The translations under genes were made by a program, and so were the position numbers. A DNA stretch of 64,000 nt from an uncultured Verrucomicrobiota bacterium (GTDB lineage Bacteria; Verrucomicrobiota; Kiritimatiellia; CAIKKV01; CAITUY01). Shown in pieces: positions 9,010 to 64,000 of this stretch. The first letter of the stretch is position 1; each line of letters begins with the position of its first letter. The notes under the pieces are model-generated. The model worked only from the letters and a program-made list of their open reading frames with translations. It did no database searches and was not told where the DNA came from. The stretch lies in contig CAZTAJ010000006.1 of assembly GCA_964611575.1 (NCBI GenBank), positions 2,780-66,779 of the forward strand, in the 5' to 3' direction.

Positions 9010-9362
9010 CGTGCGCTCACCGTGAGAGACTGTTTGCGTCCGTCCGGGCCGAGGTTGACATACACCAGGGTCGCGGAGCCGATCAGCCTCTTCTGCACCC
9101 AGCCCCGCACCAGCACGCGCACTGACGTCGTCCCCTGGCCACCGAGTTCGGCTTCAAACGTGATGGCGTCACCCAGCGATGCCGGCCGCTCGAAACTGAT
9201 CTCCGCCGCCCGCGTCACGAATGTCCTGGTCCCGAACTCCCGACGCAGCAGGCAGTAAGCCACCGTGTCGATCTCGGCCATCAACGCCCCGCCGAACAGA
9301 TGCCCCTGATGGTTGAGATGCTCGGACCTGACCAGAAACACGCTCTGCAACTTCTTCTTCAT
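9006..9362 (-). CDS. hotdog-fold acyl-CoA thioesterase
   Basis: HLNHQGHLFGGALMAEIDTVA motif of YciA/BFIT-type thioesterases. Start trimmed to ATG 9362 (MKKKLQ). Confidence 0.75.
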   Translation of the reverse strand: MKKKLQSVFLVRSEHLNHQGHLFGGALMAEIDTVAYCLLRREFGTRTFVTRAAEISFERPASLGDAITFEAELGGQGTTSVRVLVRGWVQKRLIGSATLVYVNLGPDGRKQSLTVSAR

Positions 9363-9373
9363 GCGCACGTTCC

Positions 9374-11767
9374 TCAGCAACGGTGCTTGGTGCGGGCGAT
9401 GATGTGTTCCTGCAACTCGCGGTCCACCAGCTTGAATTTCTGGGAGAAGCCGGCGACGCGCACCGGGAGATTGCCGTAGCGTTCCGGGTCCGCCTGGGCC
9501 TGGCGAAGCCGCTCGGCTGTGACCACGTTCCACTGCAACTGGCCGATGCCCATGGTGACGGCGGCGCGGATCAGGGCGACCAGCCGTTGGCGGCCGGCGG
9601 CGCCCTCCACCAGTTTGGGATCAAGGTCGATGATGGCCGCCGAGGCGCCGGCAGCCCGGTGATGCGGCAGGCGGGCCAGCGTGTTCAGCATGGCGGTGAC
9701 GCCCTCTTCATCCCGGCCTTGCTGGGCGGACAACGAATAAGCGATCGGCTCGCCGGCCAGACGGCCATCCGGCGTGGCGCCCAGCGCCTTACCGAAGTGG
9801 AGGTTGCAGAGGAACGAGAAGAGATGCACGAAGTACCGGCCGCCCAGCGGGCTGCGCATGGCGTCCATGAGATCGATGAACTGTTCGTCAACCCGGCGGG
9901 CCAGGGTGTCGACCTCGGGATTGTCGTTCCCGTACTTGGGCGCCTGCTTGAGCAGGAGCTGGCGCAACTCTTCGCGGCCGGCGAAATTGTTCTGCAAGGC
10001 ATCCAGCAGATCCCCGGCCGGAACCTTCTTTTCCTCAAACACCAGTTTCTTCAGCGCCATCAGGGAATCGGCGGCGTTGGCGGTGCCCAGCAGGCACACC
10101 GAGTGGTAGTTGTAGAGGGCTCCCCCGTTGGTGATGTCGCGGCCGCGCTCAATGCAGGCATCGGTCAGCACGCTCCAGCAGGGCAACGGCCCGCGTTCCC
10201 GTTGCATCAATTCGCCACGATTACAGTGATAGACCATGCGCCGGGCCAGGAATTCAACCTGGGCCGTGTAGGCGCGCCAGAAAGCGGCGAAGTCCACCAG
10301 GTCAACCAGGCTGCCGGTGTTCGGCCCGATCTGTTCGCCCGTGCGCGGATCGCGCCCGTCGAAGAGCGCCAGCTCCACACACTTCGCGGCGTTGAACCAA
10401 CCGGAAACCGCATGCGGGTTGGCTTTGCCGGGAATCGTCAGTTCGATGCACCCGATGGGCGCATAGTCACGGGCATCCTCCGGTGAAATACCATGGTCGG
10501 TCAGCGCCGGGATGAAACAGTCGTCGTTGAACAGGAACGGGATGCCGCCGCCGGCCGCAATCAGTTCCGCCGCCAGGTCGAGGAACTCCGTCGGCGTGTC
10601 GTGGTTGATGCGAATCGACACGTCGCGGATGAAATCCACGTTGCGGGTCGCTTCCAGAATGATGTAGCTGAGGTCGTTGACGGCGCAACGGCCGGCTGCG
10701 TCCACGCCGCCCAGCGTGATGGCCTGGACGTCGTAGTCCAGGTACAACTTGCAGGCGAGTTCCTCCATCCATTCGCGCGCGGCATCCCGCGTGACCCGTC
10801 CAGCCGCCAGGTCGGCCGCATAGTAGGGCTGGAGAATCTGATCGAGACGACCGATGGAGTTGGCGTTGATGCCGTCCTCGCCACACGTGAGGATGTGGCT
10901 GAACCACAAACTCTGCACGGCCTCGGTAAAGGTGCGGGCGCCGTGGGCGGGCACGCGATCGCACAGGTCCGCCATGGCCAGCAAACGCGCCCGGTCGTCC
11001 CCCTGCGCGGCCTCGGCCAGCCGCCGCGCCTCCCCGGCGTAGCGCTGTCCCAGCCGAATACCCGCGTCGCAGACCGACAGCGCAGCCCGCCAGAAATTCT
11101 CCTTTTGCGGAAAGCCGGGGTCGGCCAGATCGCCCTTCGAAAGGTACCCTTCGATCTCGGCACGAATGCCGACAAATCCTATGCGCAGCACCTTGGCAAA
11201 GTCGCGGATACTGTGGTTTTCAATCCAACCACCGCTCCAATACACCTTGCTTTCGTGATCACGACTGGACCAGAACCCGCGACCGCGGGAGGAGTCCGTC
11301 ATCGCCTGACCGACCTCGACGTCGGTCGACCCGCCGGGCAATGCGTCCGCCGTCCCGTACCAGACCTTGACCGCCTGGGTCAGGCTGGCGAAATCGGCAT
11401 CGTCCAGGCCGAAGGTCGTCTTCAACGCCGCGATGTCGTCCCGGGACAGGTCGTTCAGCGCCCACGGCTGGAGGGGGCGGAGATGCTCGCCGGCCAGCCG
11501 CCAGTCCGGGCCGATCCCCACCGGTGCCAGGTCCACGAGTTGCGCCAGGAAAGCCGCCCGGCGCTGCACCCGCGATTGGCCGGGCTGTACGGACCGCCAG
11601 AGCGCAACGTCCGTCAGGGAGGGGTTCGAGGCAGAATTCCAGGAACCCCGTTGCGCCATCGCGGTTTCGCGCAAACGGGCCAGACGGGGTCCCAACGCAG
11701 ATTTTGCCACTGTTCTCACGGTGGAGACTCTATCGTCACGTACCGTGTTCCTACGAAATCGGTTCAT
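9374..11767 (-). CDS. glycyl radical enzyme, PFL2/dehydratase-lyase class
   Basis: C-terminal glycyl-radical motif VRVAGFS and a Cys loop PIGCIE (the GCxE of CutC/glycerol-dehydratase/HypD-type eliminases). About 797 aa. Confidence 0.9.
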   Translation of the reverse strand: MNRFRRNTVRDDRVSTVRTVAKSALGPRLARLRETAMAQRGSWNSASNPSLTDVALWRSVQPGQSRVQRRAAFLAQLVDLAPVGIGPDWRLAGEHLRPLQPWALNDLSRDDIAALKTTFGLDDADFASLTQAVKVWYGTADALPGGSTDVEVGQAMTDSSRGRGFWSSRDHESKVYWSGGWIENHSIRDFAKVLRIGFVGIRAEIEGYLSKGDLADPGFPQKENFWRAALSVCDAGIRLGQRYAGEARRLAEAAQGDDRARLLAMADLCDRVPAHGARTFTEAVQSLWFSHILTCGEDGINANSIGRLDQILQPYYAADLAAGRVTRDAAREWMEELACKLYLDYDVQAITLGGVDAAGRCAVNDLSYIILEATRNVDFIRDVSIRINHDTPTEFLDLAAELIAAGGGIPFLFNDDCFIPALTDHGISPEDARDYAPIGCIELTIPGKANPHAVSGWFNAAKCVELALFDGRDPRTGEQIGPNTGSLVDLVDFAAFWRAYTAQVEFLARRMVYHCNRGELMQRERGPLPCWSVLTDACIERGRDITNGGALYNYHSVCLLGTANAADSLMALKKLVFEEKKVPAGDLLDALQNNFAGREELRQLLLKQAPKYGNDNPEVDTLARRVDEQFIDLMDAMRSPLGGRYFVHLFSFLCNLHFGKALGATPDGRLAGEPIAYSLSAQQGRDEEGVTAMLNTLARLPHHRAAGASAAIIDLDPKLVEGAAGRQRLVALIRAAVTMGIGQLQWNVVTAERLRQAQADPERYGNLPVRVAGFSQKFKLVDRELQEHIIARTKHRC

Positions 11768-57197: not shown

Positions 57198-58115
57198 ATG
57201 ACAACCCCGCAACTGGAGATCCAACTGGCCGGCATCCGGATGAAGAATCCGGTCATGGTGGCGTCGGGCACCTTCGGCTACGGTCCCGAATACGCCGACC
57301 TGGTCGACCTCAACCAACTCGGCGCCATCGTGGTCAAGGGCATCAGTCTCGAACCCTGGGGCGGCAACCGCACCCCGCGCCTGGTGGAAGTGCCGGGTGG
57401 ACTGCTCAACGCCATCGGCCTCCAGAACCCGGGCGTGCAGGGATTCATCGATAAGTACATGCCCTTTCTCCGCCGTCACGACGTACCGGTCATCGTCAAT
57501 ATCTGGGGCAAGACGGCCGAAGAGTATGCCGAGGTCGCCGCCCGTTTCGATCAGGTGGACGGGGTGGCCGGCCTGGAAATCAACATCTCGTGCCCCAATC
57601 TCAAAGCCGGCGGCAGTGCGTTCGGCACGAACCTGGACGCGACGGCCCGCGTCGTGTCGGCGGTCCGCAAGCGAACCCGGCTGCCGATTATTCCCAAACT
57701 CGCGCCGAACGTGTCGGATATCGCCGCCTTTGCGCGCGTGTGCGTGGACAACGGCGCCGATGCCTTGTCCCTCATCAATTCGTTTCCGGCCATGGCGATC
57801 GACATCGAAACCCGGCGCCCGCTCCTGGCCAACGTCACGGGCGGCCTGAGCGGTCCGGCGATTCATCCGATTGCCGTGAAGCTGGTGTACGAGACGGCCC
57901 GGGCGGTCAAGATTCCGCTGATCGCCCTCGGCGGCATCACGCAGGCGCAGCAGGCGATCGAGTTCATGATCGCCGGCGCCACGGCGGTCGCCGTGGGCAC
58001 TGCCAACTTCACCGAGCCCCAGACGGCCATCCGGGTGATTCACGGTCTGCAACGCTACCTTGAATCGCACCACCTGGCGTCCGCCGGGGCGCTGACCGGC
58101 ACGGTGCGCCTGTGA
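57198..58115 (+). CDS. pyrD: dihydroorotate dehydrogenase catalytic subunit (class 1B) PyrD
   Basis: ASGTFGYG, GLQNPG, EINISCPN and GGLSGPAI motifs. Confidence 0.9.
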   Translation: MTTPQLEIQLAGIRMKNPVMVASGTFGYGPEYADLVDLNQLGAIVVKGISLEPWGGNRTPRLVEVPGGLLNAIGLQNPGVQGFIDKYMPFLRRHDVPVIVNIWGKTAEEYAEVAARFDQVDGVAGLEINISCPNLKAGGSAFGTNLDATARVVSAVRKRTRLPIIPKLAPNVSDIAAFARVCVDNGADALSLINSFPAMAIDIETRRPLLANVTGGLSGPAIHPIAVKLVYETARAVKIPLIALGGITQAQQAIEFMIAGATAVAVGTANFTEPQTAIRVIHGLQRYLESHHLASAGALTGTVRL

Positions 58116-59746
58116 CTGCCGTCCGCCGCATGACCTTCTGGTCGCTGCTGGCGGCGGGGGTCGTCGCGTTTTTCGTCTGGCTGGTGTACGTCCCCTACCG
58201 GCCGGAGAAAGTGTTCGAAACCATTCCCGCCTCGGCTGCCTGGGTCAGCGTTCACCCTCGTCTCGCCGACGAATGGCCGGCCCTCATCCGCAACCCCGCC
58301 CTCACCAACCTGCTCATCGCGGCCGGGGTCAAGCCGGAGGACACCGGCAAGCTCGGAGCCGACCCGGTCCTCCAGGCGTGGATCCGGAAACTGGCCGGGC
58401 GCGAGACGGTCATCGCCTACGTCCCCGTCATGGGATATCAGAACCAGCCGGCCTGGGTGTTCGCCACCTGGATCGGGTCGCAAAGCATCACTCTCCGGCT
58501 CAGGCTCCCGTTCATCCGGTCGTCCGGGTTGCGGCGGGTGCCCGTGGAAAATGGCCGCACGGTCTATATCGCCCGCACCGCTTTTGCGCAGCCTGGCCAG
58601 AAACTCTCCCTGGCCTTGATGGACGGCGTGCTGGTGGGTTGCCTTTCGGCCGATCCCGTGGGCGTCCGCTGGCTGCTGGAAACCGGCGACCGCTATCCCT
58701 GGAAACCGTCCTTGCGGACCTCCGGCCAACTCGATCGGGCGCGGGGGCTGCTGGCAGCAACCCCTCCCCCCCATTGGGGTTGGTTCTCCCTGCCGACGGC
58801 GGGCGATGCCGGCATGGTCGCCTACACGCTGGAGCTCGGCTCCGACCGTCGCCTGGAAGCCCGGATGGTCACGGCGACTCCCGTGCCCGGCGCCGCCATG
58901 CCGCTATCGGCCCCCGCGCTGGCCTCCATGACCGACTTGCTGGGCGAAAGTCCCGACCTGATCGCCGTCCTGCCCCTGGCCTCCGTCGCGCCGCTGGCGC
59001 TCCGCTCGGAAACGCCGCTCTGGACGGCGACGGCCAGGGCCCTGTTGTCCCCCGCCAACCTGCCGTCGAATGCGCTCGCCGTGGTGGCCGTCCTGGATCA
59101 GGCGCATTGCAGCCGGATCCGCGGTCCGCTCGGTCCCGTCCTGGGCCCGCTCATGAAAGGCCTGAAACTGCCGACCCTGGTCCTGGGGTACGAGGTCGGC
59201 TCATCCGACGAGGCTGATGCGCGCATCGACCAGGCGCTTGACCAACTGAATGTCCGGTATAGCACCGGTCTCATTCGACACACGGTGCCCGCGGGATCCC
59301 GCACCATCACCCTAATCGAGGAGACCCGGTCGGGCTTCTACTCCAAGTTCGAGCCCGACGAACGCGTGGCGTATGTCGTTTGCGACGGCTGGCTCTTCCT
59401 CTGCAGCAACGCAACGGTGCTCAAAAAGCGGCTGGCCGACCACGAGGCCCGCGGCGACCAGCCCGCCCCTCCGGCGCCATGGTTCGCAGCGGCCCTGCGC
59501 ACTCCCGCAACCGCGGCCGCCTGGATGGACCTCACCGCCGGGGCGAAGACCGTCAAGGACCTGGCCGGCGCCGCCCAGTTGATCACCCTGATGGTCAATA
59601 CAAAGGATTCCAGCAAACTGCGCGAAACGCTGACCGGCTGGCGCAAGGCGGCGGACCTGTTGAAACCCTTCGAAACGGCGGAGGCCACGCTGAGTTGCAG
59701 TAACGGCCTGACGCACTTGAACGTCGTCCTCGGCGCAACCCGCTGA
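58112..59746 (+). CDS. hypothetical N-terminally anchored protein
   Basis: GTGA overlap with the pyrD stop (alternative ATG 58130), a single N-terminal TM and no motif recognised. Confidence 0.5.
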   Translation: MTAVRRMTFWSLLAAGVVAFFVWLVYVPYRPEKVFETIPASAAWVSVHPRLADEWPALIRNPALTNLLIAAGVKPEDTGKLGADPVLQAWIRKLAGRETVIAYVPVMGYQNQPAWVFATWIGSQSITLRLRLPFIRSSGLRRVPVENGRTVYIARTAFAQPGQKLSLALMDGVLVGCLSADPVGVRWLLETGDRYPWKPSLRTSGQLDRARGLLAATPPPHWGWFSLPTAGDAGMVAYTLELGSDRRLEARMVTATPVPGAAMPLSAPALASMTDLLGESPDLIAVLPLASVAPLALRSETPLWTATARALLSPANLPSNALAVVAVLDQAHCSRIRGPLGPVLGPLMKGLKLPTLVLGYEVGSSDEADARIDQALDQLNVRYSTGLIRHTVPAGSRTITLIEETRSGFYSKFEPDERVAYVVCDGWLFLCSNATVLKKRLADHEARGDQPAPPAPWFAAALRTPATAAAWMDLTAGAKTVKDLAGAAQLITLMVNTKDSSKLRETLTGWRKAADLLKPFETAEATLSCSNGLTHLNVVLGATR

Positions 59747-59778
59747 GAGAAACGGCACTCGCATAAGAGCGGCCAACC

Positions 59779-60441
59779 ATGAGTAGTCAGGTCATCTCCA
59801 AACAACGGGTCGCCGATCACGGCGAGGTGTTGACCGCCAAGCGCGAGGTCAACGCCATGCTCGATCTGGTGAAGCAGGAGACGGAACGGATCGAATCCCG
59901 CTTCCTCGAACCCGCTTGCGGCAACGGGAACTTCCTGACCGCGATTCTGGATCGGAAACTGGCCGTGGTGGAGAAACGCTACGGCAAGTCGCAACTGGAA
60001 TTTGAACGGAATGCCGTCATCGCCGTGTCGAGCCTCTATGGCATCGACATCCTTTCGGACAATGTGTCGCAATGCCGGGAGCGTCTTTTCGGCGTCTTCG
60101 ACGAGGTCTATGAGCGGCTCTTTCCCGGGACCTCCAAAGCCGGATGTCGCGACGCGGTTCGGTTCATCCTTATCCGCAACATCGTCTGGGGCGACGCCCT
60201 GACCCTCAAGACGGTTGATGAGGAGCCCGGCAACATCGTCTTCTCCGAATGGTCGCCGGTCAATGGGAGTCTGCTCAAACGGCGGGACTTCACCTTTCAC
60301 GGTCTGTTGTCGCACGAGGGCATGAAGCAATTGCCGCTCTTCTCCGACCTGGGCGAGGATGTGTTCATCCCCACGCCCGAGAAGGAGTATCCCCCGGTCC
60401 ACTTCCTGGAGATCGCCCATGTCCAGCAGCAGCGGGTATAA
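59779..60441 (+). CDS. DNA-methyltransferase-like protein with the N-terminal half only (SAM motif I, no NPPY)
   Basis: [15 protein letters not shown], motif [17 protein letters not shown] and NIVWGDAL, as in Eco57I/PglX-type enzymes. It ends before any (D/N)PP(Y/F). 23-nt overlap with the next gene. Confidence 0.6.
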
Positions 60442-61999
60442 CCCCGACGTCCTCTCCTGTATCGCCAACCTGAGCAGCGACGAGGTGTTCACCCCACCGC
60501 AACTGGCGAACCGGATTCTGGACCTGCTCCCGGCGAAACTCTGGAGCGACAAGAAGGCCACGTTCCTCGATCCCGGCTGTAAGTCGGGCGTGTTCCTGCG
60601 GGAGATTGCCAAACGTCTGGACAAGGGCCTGGAAAAACAGATCCCCGACCGCCAGAAGCGGTTGAACCACATCTTCAAGAACCAACTCTACGGACTCGCG
60701 ATCACGGAATTGACCTCCTTGCTTTCGCGCCGATCCGTGTACTGCTCCAAGACTGCCAACGGGAAGTATTCCGTTTGCGAGGCATTCGACACCCCCGAAG
60801 GCAATATCCACTTTGGCCGCGTGGAACACGCATGGGAGAATGGGTGCTGCTCTTACTGCGGGGCCAACGAGGAGAACTACGAAAGGGGTGGGGAACTTGA
60901 AAGTCACGCCTACGCGTTCATCCATGCCGAAAAGCCGAAGGAGATATTCAATATGAAATTCGACGTTATTATCGGCAATCCCCCTTACCAGTTGAGCGAT
61001 GCTGGTTTTGGAGAGAGCGCCCGTCCGCTCTACCACTTGTTCGTTGAACGGGCAAAGAAGCTGAACCCGCGATTCCTGACCATGATTATTCCCTCTCGTT
61101 GGTTCGCGGGTGGAAAGGGCTTAGATGAGTTCCGAGAGTCGATGCTCACCGATGACCGATTGCGCTCGATTGACGACCATCTCAGCGCCTCGGACGTCTT
61201 TCCGGGCGTGGGTCTCAAGGGCGGCGTTTGCTACTTCCTATGGGACCGCGACAACCCCGGACCCTGTCAAGTCACCACTCATTTCAAGGACTGGCCTGTT
61301 TCGATTGCCACCCGTCCGCTTCTTGAAAAGGGAATTGACGTGTTCGTTCGCTTCAATGAAGGCCTGTCGATCCTCAAGAAGGTCGTTGCTGTCGAGAGAG
61401 GAAAGACCGACTCGCTTTCGCTGCCTGAAAGCAAGCGTTTCGACCGATTAGTCAGCTCCAGAAAGCCGTTCGCTCTGGAGACCACGTTTAAGGGCAAAGT
61501 TGCCAAGAGTGCCGGTGACATCTTGGTTTATCAGAACGGCGGCACGGGATACGTCTCCAGAAGCTCGATTTCGACGGGCACCGAACTCATCGATAAATGG
61601 AAACTGTTCACAGGCCGGGCTGCTCCCGGGACCGGGAACAAAGACACCTACCCGCACAGGATCATAAGCACGCCGTTCCTTGGAGAGCCGGGCACCATCT
61701 CTTCGGAGACCTATCTCTGCATTGGCCCGTTCGACTCCAAGAAACAGGCTGAAAGCGTGTTGTCCTACCTCACTTGTCGGCTAACTCGGCTCCTGATTCT
61801 TCTGCATAAACCATCCCAAGACACGACTCGCAAGGTCTACTCCTTCGTGCCAACCCAGAAGTGGACAAGACGTTGGACGGACGGGGACCTTTACGAGAAA
61901 TATGGCATCTCCGCTGGTGAGATTGCGTTCATCGAAAAGGTTGTCCGCCCGATGCCTGCCGATAGTGACAAGGCGGGCGGGGAGGCGGGCGATGAGTAG
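60419..61999 (+). CDS. Eco57I-family N6-adenine DNA methyltransferase with TaqI-like C-terminal target-recognition region
   Basis: [14 protein letters not shown], motif [13 protein letters not shown] and motif [11 protein letters not shown]. Has a Cys-rich insert (CEAF...CCSYCG). Start at ATG 60419. Confidence 0.85.
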
Positions 62000-62014
62000 G
62001 CGAATAAGTCAGTC

Positions 62015-62031
62015 GGTGACAAACTGTCACC
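62015..62031. promoter_or_regulatory. palindrome GGTGACA-AAC-TGTCACC upstream of the Bro-N gene
   Basis: Read directly. Lies 36 nt upstream of ATG 62067 with no T-run after it. Confidence 0.25.
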
Positions 62032-62066
62032 AACTGAAGATACCAGATGAATAAAGGGCAACGACT

Positions 62067-62900
62067 ATGGAAAACGAGCGCGCATTGGTGGCATTTGAAA
62101 AGCATCCGATCCGCCGATTCTACGATGAATCGCGGGAGATGTGGTATTTCTCGGTGGTTGACGTGGTGGCGGCGCTGACAGAGAGCGCGAATCCGGCGGT
62201 TTACTGGCGAGTGCTGAAAAAGCGTCTAAAAGACGAAGGCGCAAATGAAACCGTTACAAAATGTAACGCTTTGAAAATGCCATCGGCTGATGGGAAGTCG
62301 CGGCTGACCGATATGGCCGACACGGAGACTCTGCTTCGCCTGATCCAATCCATCCCATCCCCCAAGGCCGAACCGTTCAAACAGTGGTTGGCGAAGGTCG
62401 GGTATGAGCGTATTCAGGATATGAGCGATCCCGCCCGGTCGCTCGACCGCGCCCGGGAATACTGGCAACAGCACGGCCGCAGCGAGAAATGGATTCAGCA
62501 GCGGATGATGGGGCAGGAGACACGCAATAAACTGACCGATTACTGGAAGGATCACGAGATTAAGGGTGAGGATGAGTACGCGATCCTGACCAACATCATT
62601 CATCAGGAATGGAGCGACGTCCCGGTCAAAGAGCACAGACGGATGAAGGGCCTGAAAACCCAGAACCTGCGCGATCACATGAGCGAGGCGGAGTTGATCT
62701 TCACCGCGCTGGCGGAGCTTTCCACGCGCCAGATTGCCGAGAGCGTCGCGGCCACCGGCATGCCGGAAAACGCGGAGGCCGGAAAGAAGGGCGGCAGAAT
62801 CGCCAAGGGAGCGCGGCTCCAACTGGAACAGAAGACCGGAAAGAGCGTGGTTACCGGCGAGAATTTCCTGCCGCCGGGACATGGGAAGGTGCTGAAGTGA
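62067..62900 (+). CDS. Bro-N domain protein (DinD/antirepressor-like)
   Basis: N-terminus FEKHPIRRFYDESREMWYFSVVDVVAALT is typical of Bro-N. The remainder is helical, like DinD-type proteins (recalled). Confidence 0.7.
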   Translation: MENERALVAFEKHPIRRFYDESREMWYFSVVDVVAALTESANPAVYWRVLKKRLKDEGANETVTKCNALKMPSADGKSRLTDMADTETLLRLIQSIPSPKAEPFKQWLAKVGYERIQDMSDPARSLDRAREYWQQHGRSEKWIQQRMMGQETRNKLTDYWKDHEIKGEDEYAILTNIIHQEWSDVPVKEHRRMKGLKTQNLRDHMSEAELIFTALAELSTRQIAESVAATGMPENAEAGKKGGRIAKGARLQLEQKTGKSVVTGENFLPPGHGKVLK

Positions 62901-63019
62901 CCGATGCCCTGTTTGAAAATGTCGGCGCACTGGTCGGGCAGATAAAGGGTCTCGCCCGGCAGGCGCACGCCGAGTATTCAATCTGGGATGACAAGAGAAG
63001 GGAGGAAGAGCGTGAGTAA
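62897..63019 (+). CDS. possible 40-aa micro-ORF
   Basis: GTG overlaps the Bro-N stop (GTGA) and the ORF ends 8 nt inside the next gene. The coupling geometry is the only support. Confidence 0.2.
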   Translation: MTDALFENVGALVGQIKGLARQAHAEYSIWDDKRREEERE

Positions 63020-64000
63020 CGAGTTCTTCCCGCCGCGCCCGGCCTCGCGGCCCACGGTCTACGCCTACGAGGATACGAACCCGCAGTATGCCGGCCTTCT
63101 TAAGGTCGGCTACACGACCGTGGACGCGCAGAACCGTGTCGCGCAGCAGTATCCCACGTTGCGCCCAGGTAAATCGCCGTACCGGATCGTTCTGGAAGAA
63201 CCCGCCATGCGCAGCGACGGTACGGTATTCACCGACCGCGACGTACACCGAATGCTGCGCGTCAACGGCGTCAAGAATCCGAGCGGTGAGTGGTTCCAGG
63301 GCACGGTCGCCCAGGTCAAAACGGCCATCATCGCCGTCCGGACCGGCCAACTGAATGAGGAAAACCGGTCGCTGGATTTCAAGATGCGCCCGGAACAGGA
63401 AGCGGCGGTCGAGAAGACGGCGGTGTACTTCGGCAGTTGGCGTAAAGAGAAGGGCAACCGGAACAAATCGCCCCACTTCCTCTGGAACGCCAAAATGCGC
63501 TTCGGCAAGACCTTCGCCGCCTACCAGTTGGCGAAGCAGATGGGCTGGCGCAAGGTGCTGGTCCTCACGTTCAAGCCAGCGGTGCAATGCGCCTGGGAAG
63601 AGGACTTGAAATGCCACGTGGACTTCAAGGGCTGGCAGTTCATTTCCCCCGGCGGACTCTCCTACGAGGAGGCCGACAAGAAGAAGCCGTTCGTCTGTTT
63701 CGGGTCGTTTCAGGACTACCTGGGCCGGAATCCCAGCACCGGCGGCATCAAGACCAAGAACGAGTGGGTCCACTCGACGCACTGGGATTGCGTGATTCTG
63801 GACGAATACCACTACGGCGCATGGCGGGAGAACGCGAAGGAACTGTTTGAGGCAGAGGACGAGAAAGAGGTGAAGTTCGGCCAGGGGGAAGGTATCGAGG
63901 ACTTCGACGAAGACATCATGCCGATCACCACGGACGGCTACCTCTACCTCTCAGGCACACCGTTCCGGGCCATTGCCTCCGGCGAGTTCATCGAGGAGCA
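63012..64000 (+). CDS. GIY-YIG/T5orf172-like nuclease domain fused to an SF2 (ResIII/DEAH) helicase; partial, runs off window
   Basis: My own translation, as this ORF is not in the track; the frame stays open to nt 64000. GTG 63012 follows a GGGAGGAAG RBS. N-terminal VYAYED...LLKVGYTT...GEWF, Walker A MRFGKT and motif II ILDEYH. Confidence 0.75.
   Translation, partial: MSNEFFPPRPASRPTVYAYEDTNPQYAGLLKVGYTTVDAQNRVAQQYPTLRPGKSPYRIVLEEPAMRSDGTVFTDRDVHRMLRVNGVKNPSGEWFQGTVAQVKTAIIAVRTGQLNEENRSLDFKMRPEQEAAVEKTAVYFGSWRKEKGNRNKSPHFLWNAKMRFGKTFAAYQLAKQMGWRKVLVLTFKPAVQCAWEEDLKCHVDFKGWQFISPGGLSYEEADKKKPFVCFGSFQDYLGRNPSTGGIKTKNEWVHSTHWDCVILDEYHYGAWRENAKELFEAEDEKEVKFGQGEGIEDFDEDIMPITTDGYLYLSGTPFRAIASGEFIEE

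Follow-up and report, generated by a model that had tools for sequence, protein, structure and literature searches.

Near the end of a 64,000-nucleotide stretch of DNA from an uncultured Verrucomicrobiota bacterium of the class Kiritimatiellia (NCBI GenBank assembly GCA_964611575.1, contig CAZTAJ010000006.1, here contig C6; the whole stretch, C6:2780-66779, is called the window below), the guanine-cytosine (GC) content drops and four genes follow one another on the forward strand: two methyltransferase-like genes, M1 and M2, a Bro-N gene, and a gene, R, for a GIY-YIG nuclease followed by a superfamily 2 (SF2) helicase. Does this island encode a restriction-modification (R-M) system outside the catalogued types, as a sequence-only reading of the window had suggested? 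Judged by protein identity and gene order, it does not: the locus is a member of the DrdVI ('split methylase') family of REBASE, which is already catalogued and very widespread, and it is largely ordinary. We hold it to be probable, at roughly 85%, that the island stems from horizontal acquisition of a DrdVI-family operon of the form M1-M2-[passenger]-R and is lodged between housekeeping genes of a freshwater bacterium of the Planctomycetes-Verrucomicrobia-Chlamydiae (PVC) group, with a likely mechanism as proposed below.

The family was recognised through its plasmid-borne members. A tblastn search of plasmids with a fragment of R retrieved a recurring cassette, which consists of a small 'N-6 DNA methylase', a methylase with an Eco57I domain and, with a length of about 850 aa, a GIY-YIG/DEAD-box protein. 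It is carried by plasmids of Rhizobium phaseoli, of Variovorax and of Deinococcus wulumuqiensis NEB 479 (pDrdVI, CP031164; locus L004). The methyltransferases of pDrdVI, M1-2.DrdVI, have been cloned in E. coli; they make N6-methyladenine (m6A) at GCAGCC and the system is typed IIG (PMC6430315). The R protein of DrdVI is described as GIY-YIG with a 'fused translocase and REase' (PMC4996451). For M1-M2.MaeIV of Methanococcus aeolicus, the site is GCACY (PMC10113651). In these prototypes, M1 and M2 jointly methylate one adenine of a short asymmetric site (PMC6430315; PMC10113651).

We place the window locus in this family because its proteins are 43% (M1, over residues 5-213), 63% (M2), and 51% and 64% (N- and C-terminal parts of R) identical to those of DrdVI, and because the genes stand in the order M1-M2-R on one strand, as they do in the prototype. 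The likeness extends to the build of the proteins: M1 is small and lacks NPPY, M2 has a Cys/His insert and carries its recognition domain at the C-terminus, and R, with its N-terminal GIY-YIG and its SF2 motor, is about 850 aa long. Contrary to DrdVI, which resides on a plasmid, the copy in the window is chromosomal; it has a Bro-N gene and gene relics between M2 and R, and its R is incompletely assembled. Since the recognition domain of M2 differs as well, its recognition site should differ from that of DrdVI.

Relatives of R occur in at least 586 species genomes, according to a scan of one genome per species, and an exhaustive HMMER search finds 1155 clusters (50% identity) that match R at E ≤ 1e-30. 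The detailed comparison of loci covers the best 80 of these at least 586 relatives, and the junction of M2 and R is readable in 77 loci, which keep the order M1-M2-R. The view that the system is uncatalogued has to be given up: its M1-M2-R core is that of DrdVI in REBASE, and the order M1-M2-Bro-N-R recurs in 12 of the 77 loci and in a Kiritimatiellae metagenome-assembled genome. Other parts of the sequence-only reading stand. Open reading frames (ORFs) and Pfam matches agree with its placement of the four genes (part of MmeI_Mtase, Eco57I with NPPY, Bro-N, and T5orf172 with ResIII). Domain content and SF2 motifs agree with the ATP-dependent R-M-like system that it saw, and the shift towards A/T that it noticed by eye from about 59.75 kb is a computed compositional break, from a GC of about 0.68 to about 0.555. 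The PADLOC profiles, which it had named as a check, match M2 (MTase_II and REase_MTase_IIG), the Bro-N protein (PDC-S13) and, in the case of the fused model PDLC03626, both M2 and R. An NCBIfam search with the four window proteins returned no meaningful family.

M1 (59779..60441, + strand, 220 aa) matches Pfam MmeI_Mtase with its N-terminal part only (E = 2.6e-5). It contains motif X (DHGEVLT), a canonical motif I, and the stretches YGIDIL and NIVWGDAL. NPPY is absent, and an FSEWS loop with an invariant E-W pair sits where motif IV would be. The canonical motif I, FLEPACGxGNFL, is present in 62 of 62 M1 sequences, and the window protein is 58-88% (about 69%) identical to M1 of the 80 sister loci. 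In an AlphaFold2 (AF2) model of M1 (predicted local distance difference test, pLDDT, 81), about 100 residues superpose on the S-adenosylmethionine (SAM)-binding half of the CamA, MmeI, BsaXI and LlaGI methyltransferases; a full-fold match to DNA adenine methyltransferases was not found with this model. Relatives of M1 form more than 8000 clusters (90% identity). What had been taken for a half-methyltransferase peculiar to this locus is the conserved M1 subunit of the DrdVI family.

M2 (60419..61999, + strand, 526 aa) is an Eco57I-family, gamma-class N6-adenine methyltransferase (Pfam Eco57I, 7.7e-37; PADLOC MTase_II, 2e-50, and REase_MTase_IIG, 6.5e-41). Its frame is open from 60359, and the two methyltransferase genes overlap by 23 nt. 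Its parts follow the gamma-class order: motifs X and I come first, the Cys/His insert precedes motif IV (NPPY), and the target-recognition domain, which is variable, lies C-terminal to these. Among 64 homologues, conservation amounts to 0.6-0.87 in the first 240 residues, compared with 0.28-0.5 for residues 250-480. This hypervariable region is, at the level of the alignment, the signature of a swappable target-recognition domain. NPPY occurs in 64 of 64 sequences, as does the lysine (K55) of a motif I variant, FLDPxCKSGVFL. In the insert between motifs II/III and IV, C109, H137, C144, C147, H163 and H169 (residues 109-169, about 60743-60925) are invariant or nearly so; this set suggests a putative structural zinc site typical of the family.

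R (62988..64000, + strand, running off the window; Pfam T5orf172 1.4e-9 and ResIII 2.1e-6) has its GIY-YIG/T5orf172 domain (about 63060-63332) N-terminal to an SF2 double-stranded DNA (dsDNA) translocase. The window protein has intact GIY-YIG motifs and intact helicase motifs I (RFGKT), II (DEYH) and III (SGTP). Its relatives show little or no variation in the Y, KxG, R and E of the GIY-YIG domain and in motifs I, II, III and VI of the helicase. No other protein of the cassette is as well conserved: the window R is 75-90% identical to R in the 80 loci. As relatives align only from residue 6-9 onwards, its true start is probably the GTG at 63012, 5 nt behind GGGAGGA, rather than the ATG at 62988.

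For the structure of R, we used an AF2 model of the 90%-identical R of locus L009 (pLDDT 79; predicted TM-score, pTM, 0.76) as a stand-in for the window protein. In the model, the GIY-YIG domain is joined by a pair of RecA lobes and, at the C-terminus, by about 250 aa that form a helical domain. Foldseek relates it to Snf2-type dsDNA translocases, ZorD, LlaBIII (Type ISP) and SauUSI, with E values between 1e-10 and 1e-8. We note that this closest homologue of R lies on an 8-kb contig (CAYGZP010000008.1) binned as a Candidatus Woesearchaeota archaeon, which points either to cross-domain transfer or to mis-binning of a mobile element. In a same-class relative (G054:C3:12206-14065), a full DrdVI-type R (87% identical) is accompanied by another, distant paralogue with 37% identity, which lies in an open frame of 1425 aa and is probably a fused R-M2 form.

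From these parts, we propose the following mechanism. The variable C-terminal domain of M2 would read the site, and M2 would methylate one strand by means of its NPPY motif; M1 would be an obligate partner in this step but have no catalytic part in it. Where the DNA is unmodified, the complex of the two would recruit or activate R. Fuelled by ATP, the SF2 motor of R would then pump dsDNA, and the GIY-YIG domain would cut at a distance from the site, probably once the motor stalls or meets a second complex. Such a scheme would follow the logic of Type ISP enzymes with a different nuclease and with split subunits; the Bro-N/DinD-like protein, as we propose it, would not be needed for restriction. 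Experimental support is limited to methylation by the prototypes; ATP-driven translocation and cleavage by GIY-YIG are steps that we infer by analogy.

The Type ISP enzymes LlaGI and LlaBIII (PDB 4XQK, 5FFJ) and the locus follow one domain logic, made up of a nuclease, a motor of the SF2 dsDNA translocase kind, a helical linker, a gamma-class m6A methyltransferase and a recognition domain. LlaBIII is among the top Foldseek matches of the R model, and the asymmetric site and one-strand methylation of the DrdVI prototype add to the likeness. In addition, fused relatives exist in exactly the Type ISP domain order: an Enterococcus plasmid (L007) carries an M1-like gene, then a 1466-aa R-M2 fusion in which the methyltransferase follows the helicase. 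The first 140 or so residues of this fusion are 32% identical to the GIY-YIG region of the window protein; Pfam T5orf172 was not detected in it. There are differences as well. The N-terminal nuclease of Type ISP enzymes is an Mrr-type PD-(D/E)xK domain, whereas that of the window R is GIY-YIG/T5orf172. Three genes in permuted order (M before R) stand here for a single polypeptide, with an extra pseudo-methyltransferase, M1, which the Enterococcus R-M2 fusions, unlike Type ISP, retain as a separate protein. Neither phmmer nor a profile search detected sequence similarity to LlaBIII or LlaGI.

The REBASE label, Type IIG, denotes classically a single polypeptide that cuts at a fixed distance and has no nucleoside triphosphate (NTP) motor. 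With R and M separate and with complete SF2 ATPase motifs predicted in R, the system does not fit the classical Type IIG definition despite that label.

The surroundings of the operon bear on its origin. The low-GC island takes up 59750..64000 of the window (no strand assigned), with its left boundary at about 59747-59778. Over 1-kb intervals, GC is 0.669-0.690 at 57.5-59.5 kb, 0.609 at 59.5-60.5 kb and 0.553-0.576 at 60-63 kb, followed by a partial rise to about 0.605. The mean from 59750 to the contig end is 0.578, versus 0.652 for the remainder of C6; the whole genome (4.77 Mb, 319 contigs) has a GC of 0.636. The island extends to the end of C6, 231 nt past the window, and resumes, about 357 unassembled nt later, on 0.96 kb at the end of contig C58, for a total of about 7.3 kb in which the four genes are the only gene content. 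To its left stand pyrK, pyrD and a gene for a 544-aa protein, and the island begins 32 nt past the latter. To its right, on C58, a convergent tyrA follows 78 nt after the stop codon of R, then hisC, pheA and scpB, with GC back at 0.64-0.69.

No tRNA was found at the island and no integrase ORF was seen; its junctions show no direct repeats of 7 nt or more. A promoter scan gave no sigma-70-like sites, and terminator-like sites were at chance level. The pair of pyrD and the gene for the 544-aa unknown protein (window 57198-59746) is syntenic in all five relatives examined (L102-L106), with varying content downstream. None of the five has tyrA downstream of this pair, and in the same genus the contig ends about 700 nt after the 544-aa gene; this comparison showed no empty site.

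The spread of the family points to frequent horizontal transfer. The best 80 loci belong to Acidobacteriota, Desulfobacterota, Chloroflexota, Planctomycetota, Verrucomicrobiota, Nitrospirota, Actinomycetota, Elusimicrobiota and other phyla. Within the class, R is present in only 6 of the 61 genomes searched, the window genome included, and a relative of the same genus lacks it. In loci with long flanks, the GC of the cassette varies between 0.46 and 0.59 and that of the flanks between 0.41 and 0.69, so that the cassette is GC-poor inside GC-rich hosts and GC-rich inside AT-rich ones. We conclude on frequent transfer from the range of phyla, the patchy presence within the class and a cassette GC that varies less than that of the flanks; the compositional break in the window agrees with it.

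The gene between M2 and R encodes a Bro-N/DinD-like protein (62067..62900, + strand, 277 aa; Pfam Bro-N 7.7e-10) that matches PADLOC PDC-S13 from end to end (residues 1-270 on positions 1-269 of a 286-position profile, E = 1.2e-122) and PHROG 15286 (2e-90), whose function is unannotated. The term 'PDC-S13' was not found in searchable literature. The link to DinD comes solely from the label 'DNA-damage-inducible protein D', which JGI gives to several close homologues. Relatives of the protein form more than 8000 clusters (90% identity).

Across the 77 readable junctions, M2 and R are adjacent or overlapping in 52, separated by a full Bro-N gene in 12 (73-88% identity) and by a partial one in four; the remaining nine hold other inserts. 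By Pfam, the latter encode RhuM, YhcG/DUF1016, an AbiEi/AbiEii pair or a HARE-HTH protein (L045 6373-8013; L049 2844-3911; L052 6720-8000; L058 6989-8002; L072 7105-8022). Passengers of the same kinds (dinD/Bro-N, RhuM, DUF1016/YhcG, Fic, GIY-YIG) stand between hsd genes of Type I R-M operons, likewise at an internal junction; here, by contrast, they are hosted by a DrdVI-type operon, between M2 and R. The Bro-N protein also occurs (79-81% identical) as a solitary gene far from any DrdVI genes. Being absent from most loci and found alone outside the DrdVI context, Bro-N does not, by its distribution, belong to the core of the system; it is an optional passenger, and its slot is used repeatedly. 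Most likely it is an independent accessory gene, a candidate for defence or regulation, that uses the expression of the operon.

Could it nonetheless be a working part? The system would then be a four-component defence, with the Bro-N/DinD-like protein as a functional subunit or as a second-line effector, a sensor or abortive-infection arm that acts when restriction is blocked. Its recurrence in one slot (12-16 of the 77 loci), its status as a PADLOC defence candidate and the known or suspected defence or toxin genes that also occupy the slot (AbiE, YhcG, RhuM) speak for this, as do the dinD homologues that stand inside Type I systems or are fused with them (PMC4996451; PMC9881135). In most Bro-N-bearing loci, moreover, the gene overlaps the stop codon of M2 and the start of R, as in translational coupling. 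The window copy has spacers of 67 and 87 nt instead. These carry relics, a picture that suggests turnover more than integration, and because Bro-N and the relics stand between them, M2 and R are not translationally coupled in the window. As, in addition, the 52 loci devoid of any insert include prototype DrdVI, and the same protein occurs alone, remote from DrdVI genes, we regard a four-component system as unlikely.

The relics deserve a description of their own. Upstream of Bro-N, a 15-codon relic of a second, short Bro-N gene, SQSVTNCHQLKIPDE* (62007..62054, + strand), matches stretches in sister loci. The same stretch is found just 5' of a full Bro-N gene in L055, L066, L068 and L092, in frame with a Bro-N-like tail (...EGSQSVTNCHQLK..), and L018 has complete mini-ORFs of this type, of 90-106 aa. 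A perfect 17-nt palindrome, GGTGACAAACTGTCACC, lies at 62015-62031 inside the relic. We considered it as an operator of the kind bound by C proteins and rejected this in favour of its being part of the Bro-N coding relic. On the other side, between Bro-N and R, a 40-codon frame is open at 62897..63019 (+ strand); it ends in GTGAGTAA, overlapping the proposed GTG start of R. None of the related loci that were searched has a match to it at the equivalent place, and for want of such conservation it is probably not a gene. That it might be a relic of a DUF1016 N-terminus was backed in one of three comparisons (4 of 500 shuffles against L032), a weak and inconsistent signal from which we make no claim. 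The possible 40-aa ORF noted earlier thus exists as an open frame and hardly as a gene, and the 'two extra genes' once counted as parts of the system come down to one optional passenger (Bro-N, PDC-S13) and one unconserved frame.

Another explanation starts from the contig break. The earlier remark that the system is truncated at the edge of the window is correct in that C6 ends within R; extension, which it had recommended, located the C-terminus of R and left the gap between the two contigs unclosed. With the full-length R of the Rhizobium plasmid as a tblastn query, residues 3-422 align on C6 and residues 543-845 at the end of C58, so that 414 N-terminal and 319 C-terminal aa of the window R are at hand. 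In intact relatives, the spacing between these two parts is constant at 357 nt, from which we deduce that about 119 codons are unassembled and that R should measure about 850 aa. The locus is present in four freshwater metagenomes, whose Logan contigs were too fragmented to close the gap of about 357 nt. Across Bro-N and R these contigs break up into numerous short pieces that have side branches, as is to be expected where nearly identical mobile genes occur in several organisms of one sample; we ascribe the break inside R to this.

R may instead be truly broken at this point, by an insertion sequence (IS) element or a deletion, which would leave a decayed remnant with a solitary pair of methyltransferases. 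Disrupted R genes are indeed seen in relatives: L038 has about 2 kb inserted (about 9330-11540), L022 a frameshift (at about 3610) and G053:C91 an in-frame TGA; L035 and L078 are further cases, and truncations are among the disruptions. Loss of the nuclease-motor while M1 and M2 persist thus seems common among relatives, and the relics around Bro-N attest to past rearrangement at the locus. Yet both observed parts of the window R have an open frame and share 91-94% identity with an intact homologue, what is missing has the same length as the constant spacing of intact genes, and the Logan fragmentation throughout Bro-N and R fits shared mobile genes. With M1, M2 and Bro-N intact as well, decay strikes us as improbable.

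Type III enzymes, finally, offer a partial parallel. Like EcoP15I Mod and Res, the locus combines a separate, specificity-bearing modification subunit with an ATPase-nuclease subunit, and Pfam finds ResIII on the motor. However, the PD-(D/E)xK nuclease of Res is C-terminal, whereas the GIY-YIG of the window R is N-terminal and its last 250 or so aa are helical in the AF2 model; Mod is of the beta class with a central recognition domain, M2 of the gamma class with a C-terminal variable one; M1 has no counterpart. With another nuclease family in another position, another class of methyltransferase and M1 as an additional subunit, the system falls outside Type III, in line with the earlier judgement that it is no classical member of that type. 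An atypical Type III-like system, in which a Mod and a Res with swapped nuclease would diffuse in one dimension after an ATP-triggered switch instead of truly translocating, could appeal to ResIII as the best Pfam helicase match of R and to the one-strand m6A at an asymmetric site, a Type III rule as well as a property of the DrdVI prototype, but on top of the differences above a profile search did not find EcoP15I Res, and Foldseek placed Snf2-type motors and LlaBIII on top, while the top 50 matches listed include no Type III Res, so that we deem it very unlikely.

The horizontally acquired DrdVI-type operon, with the mechanism that we attach to it, has its own difficulties, and they are as follows. 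DNA-cleavage biochemistry of any DrdVI-type enzyme was not found in the searchable literature, and REBASE places the family in Type IIG, which is classically ATP-independent. The Foldseek likeness of R is generic to SF2/Snf2 motors, with TM-scores of about 0.3: LlaBIII is matched at E = 7e-10 and a query TM-score (TMq) of 0.32-0.37, and eukaryotic Snf2 remodellers and ZorD equal it in score. With R and M2 as queries, phmmer matched no PDB sequence, and a 31-sequence profile against the PDB yielded only RapA (E = 0.003); a motor from a Type I, Type III or Type ISP enzyme was found by neither search. M1 may be regulatory rather than obligate, M2 having a motif X/I region of its own. Finally, with about 119 aa unassembled, R in this genome is no more than probably intact.

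A wider reading of the family is conceivable, and we offer it tentatively, the odds being rather against it. The DrdVI family may constitute a separate ATP-dependent class and not a variant of Type IIG: a split machine akin to Type ISP, in which a GIY-YIG nuclease would ride on a Snf2-like dsDNA translocase. M1, with its canonical motif I and an E-W loop in the place of NPPY, and M2, with NPPY and a lysine in motif I, would be obligate complementary paralogues. The M2/R junction would be a dedicated slot for the exchange of accessory defence genes (Bro-N/DinD-like, RhuM, YhcG, AbiE), and the relics on both sides of the window Bro-N would record such exchange.

For this window, little is at stake, as it holds one more copy of a common and named R-M family. 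For all its abundance, the family has been studied little, and the interest that is left lies in its cleavage mechanism, in the pairing of M1 with M2 and in the cargo slot between M2 and R. Biochemistry of any member would lead to tools for predicting specificity from the recognition domain of M2.

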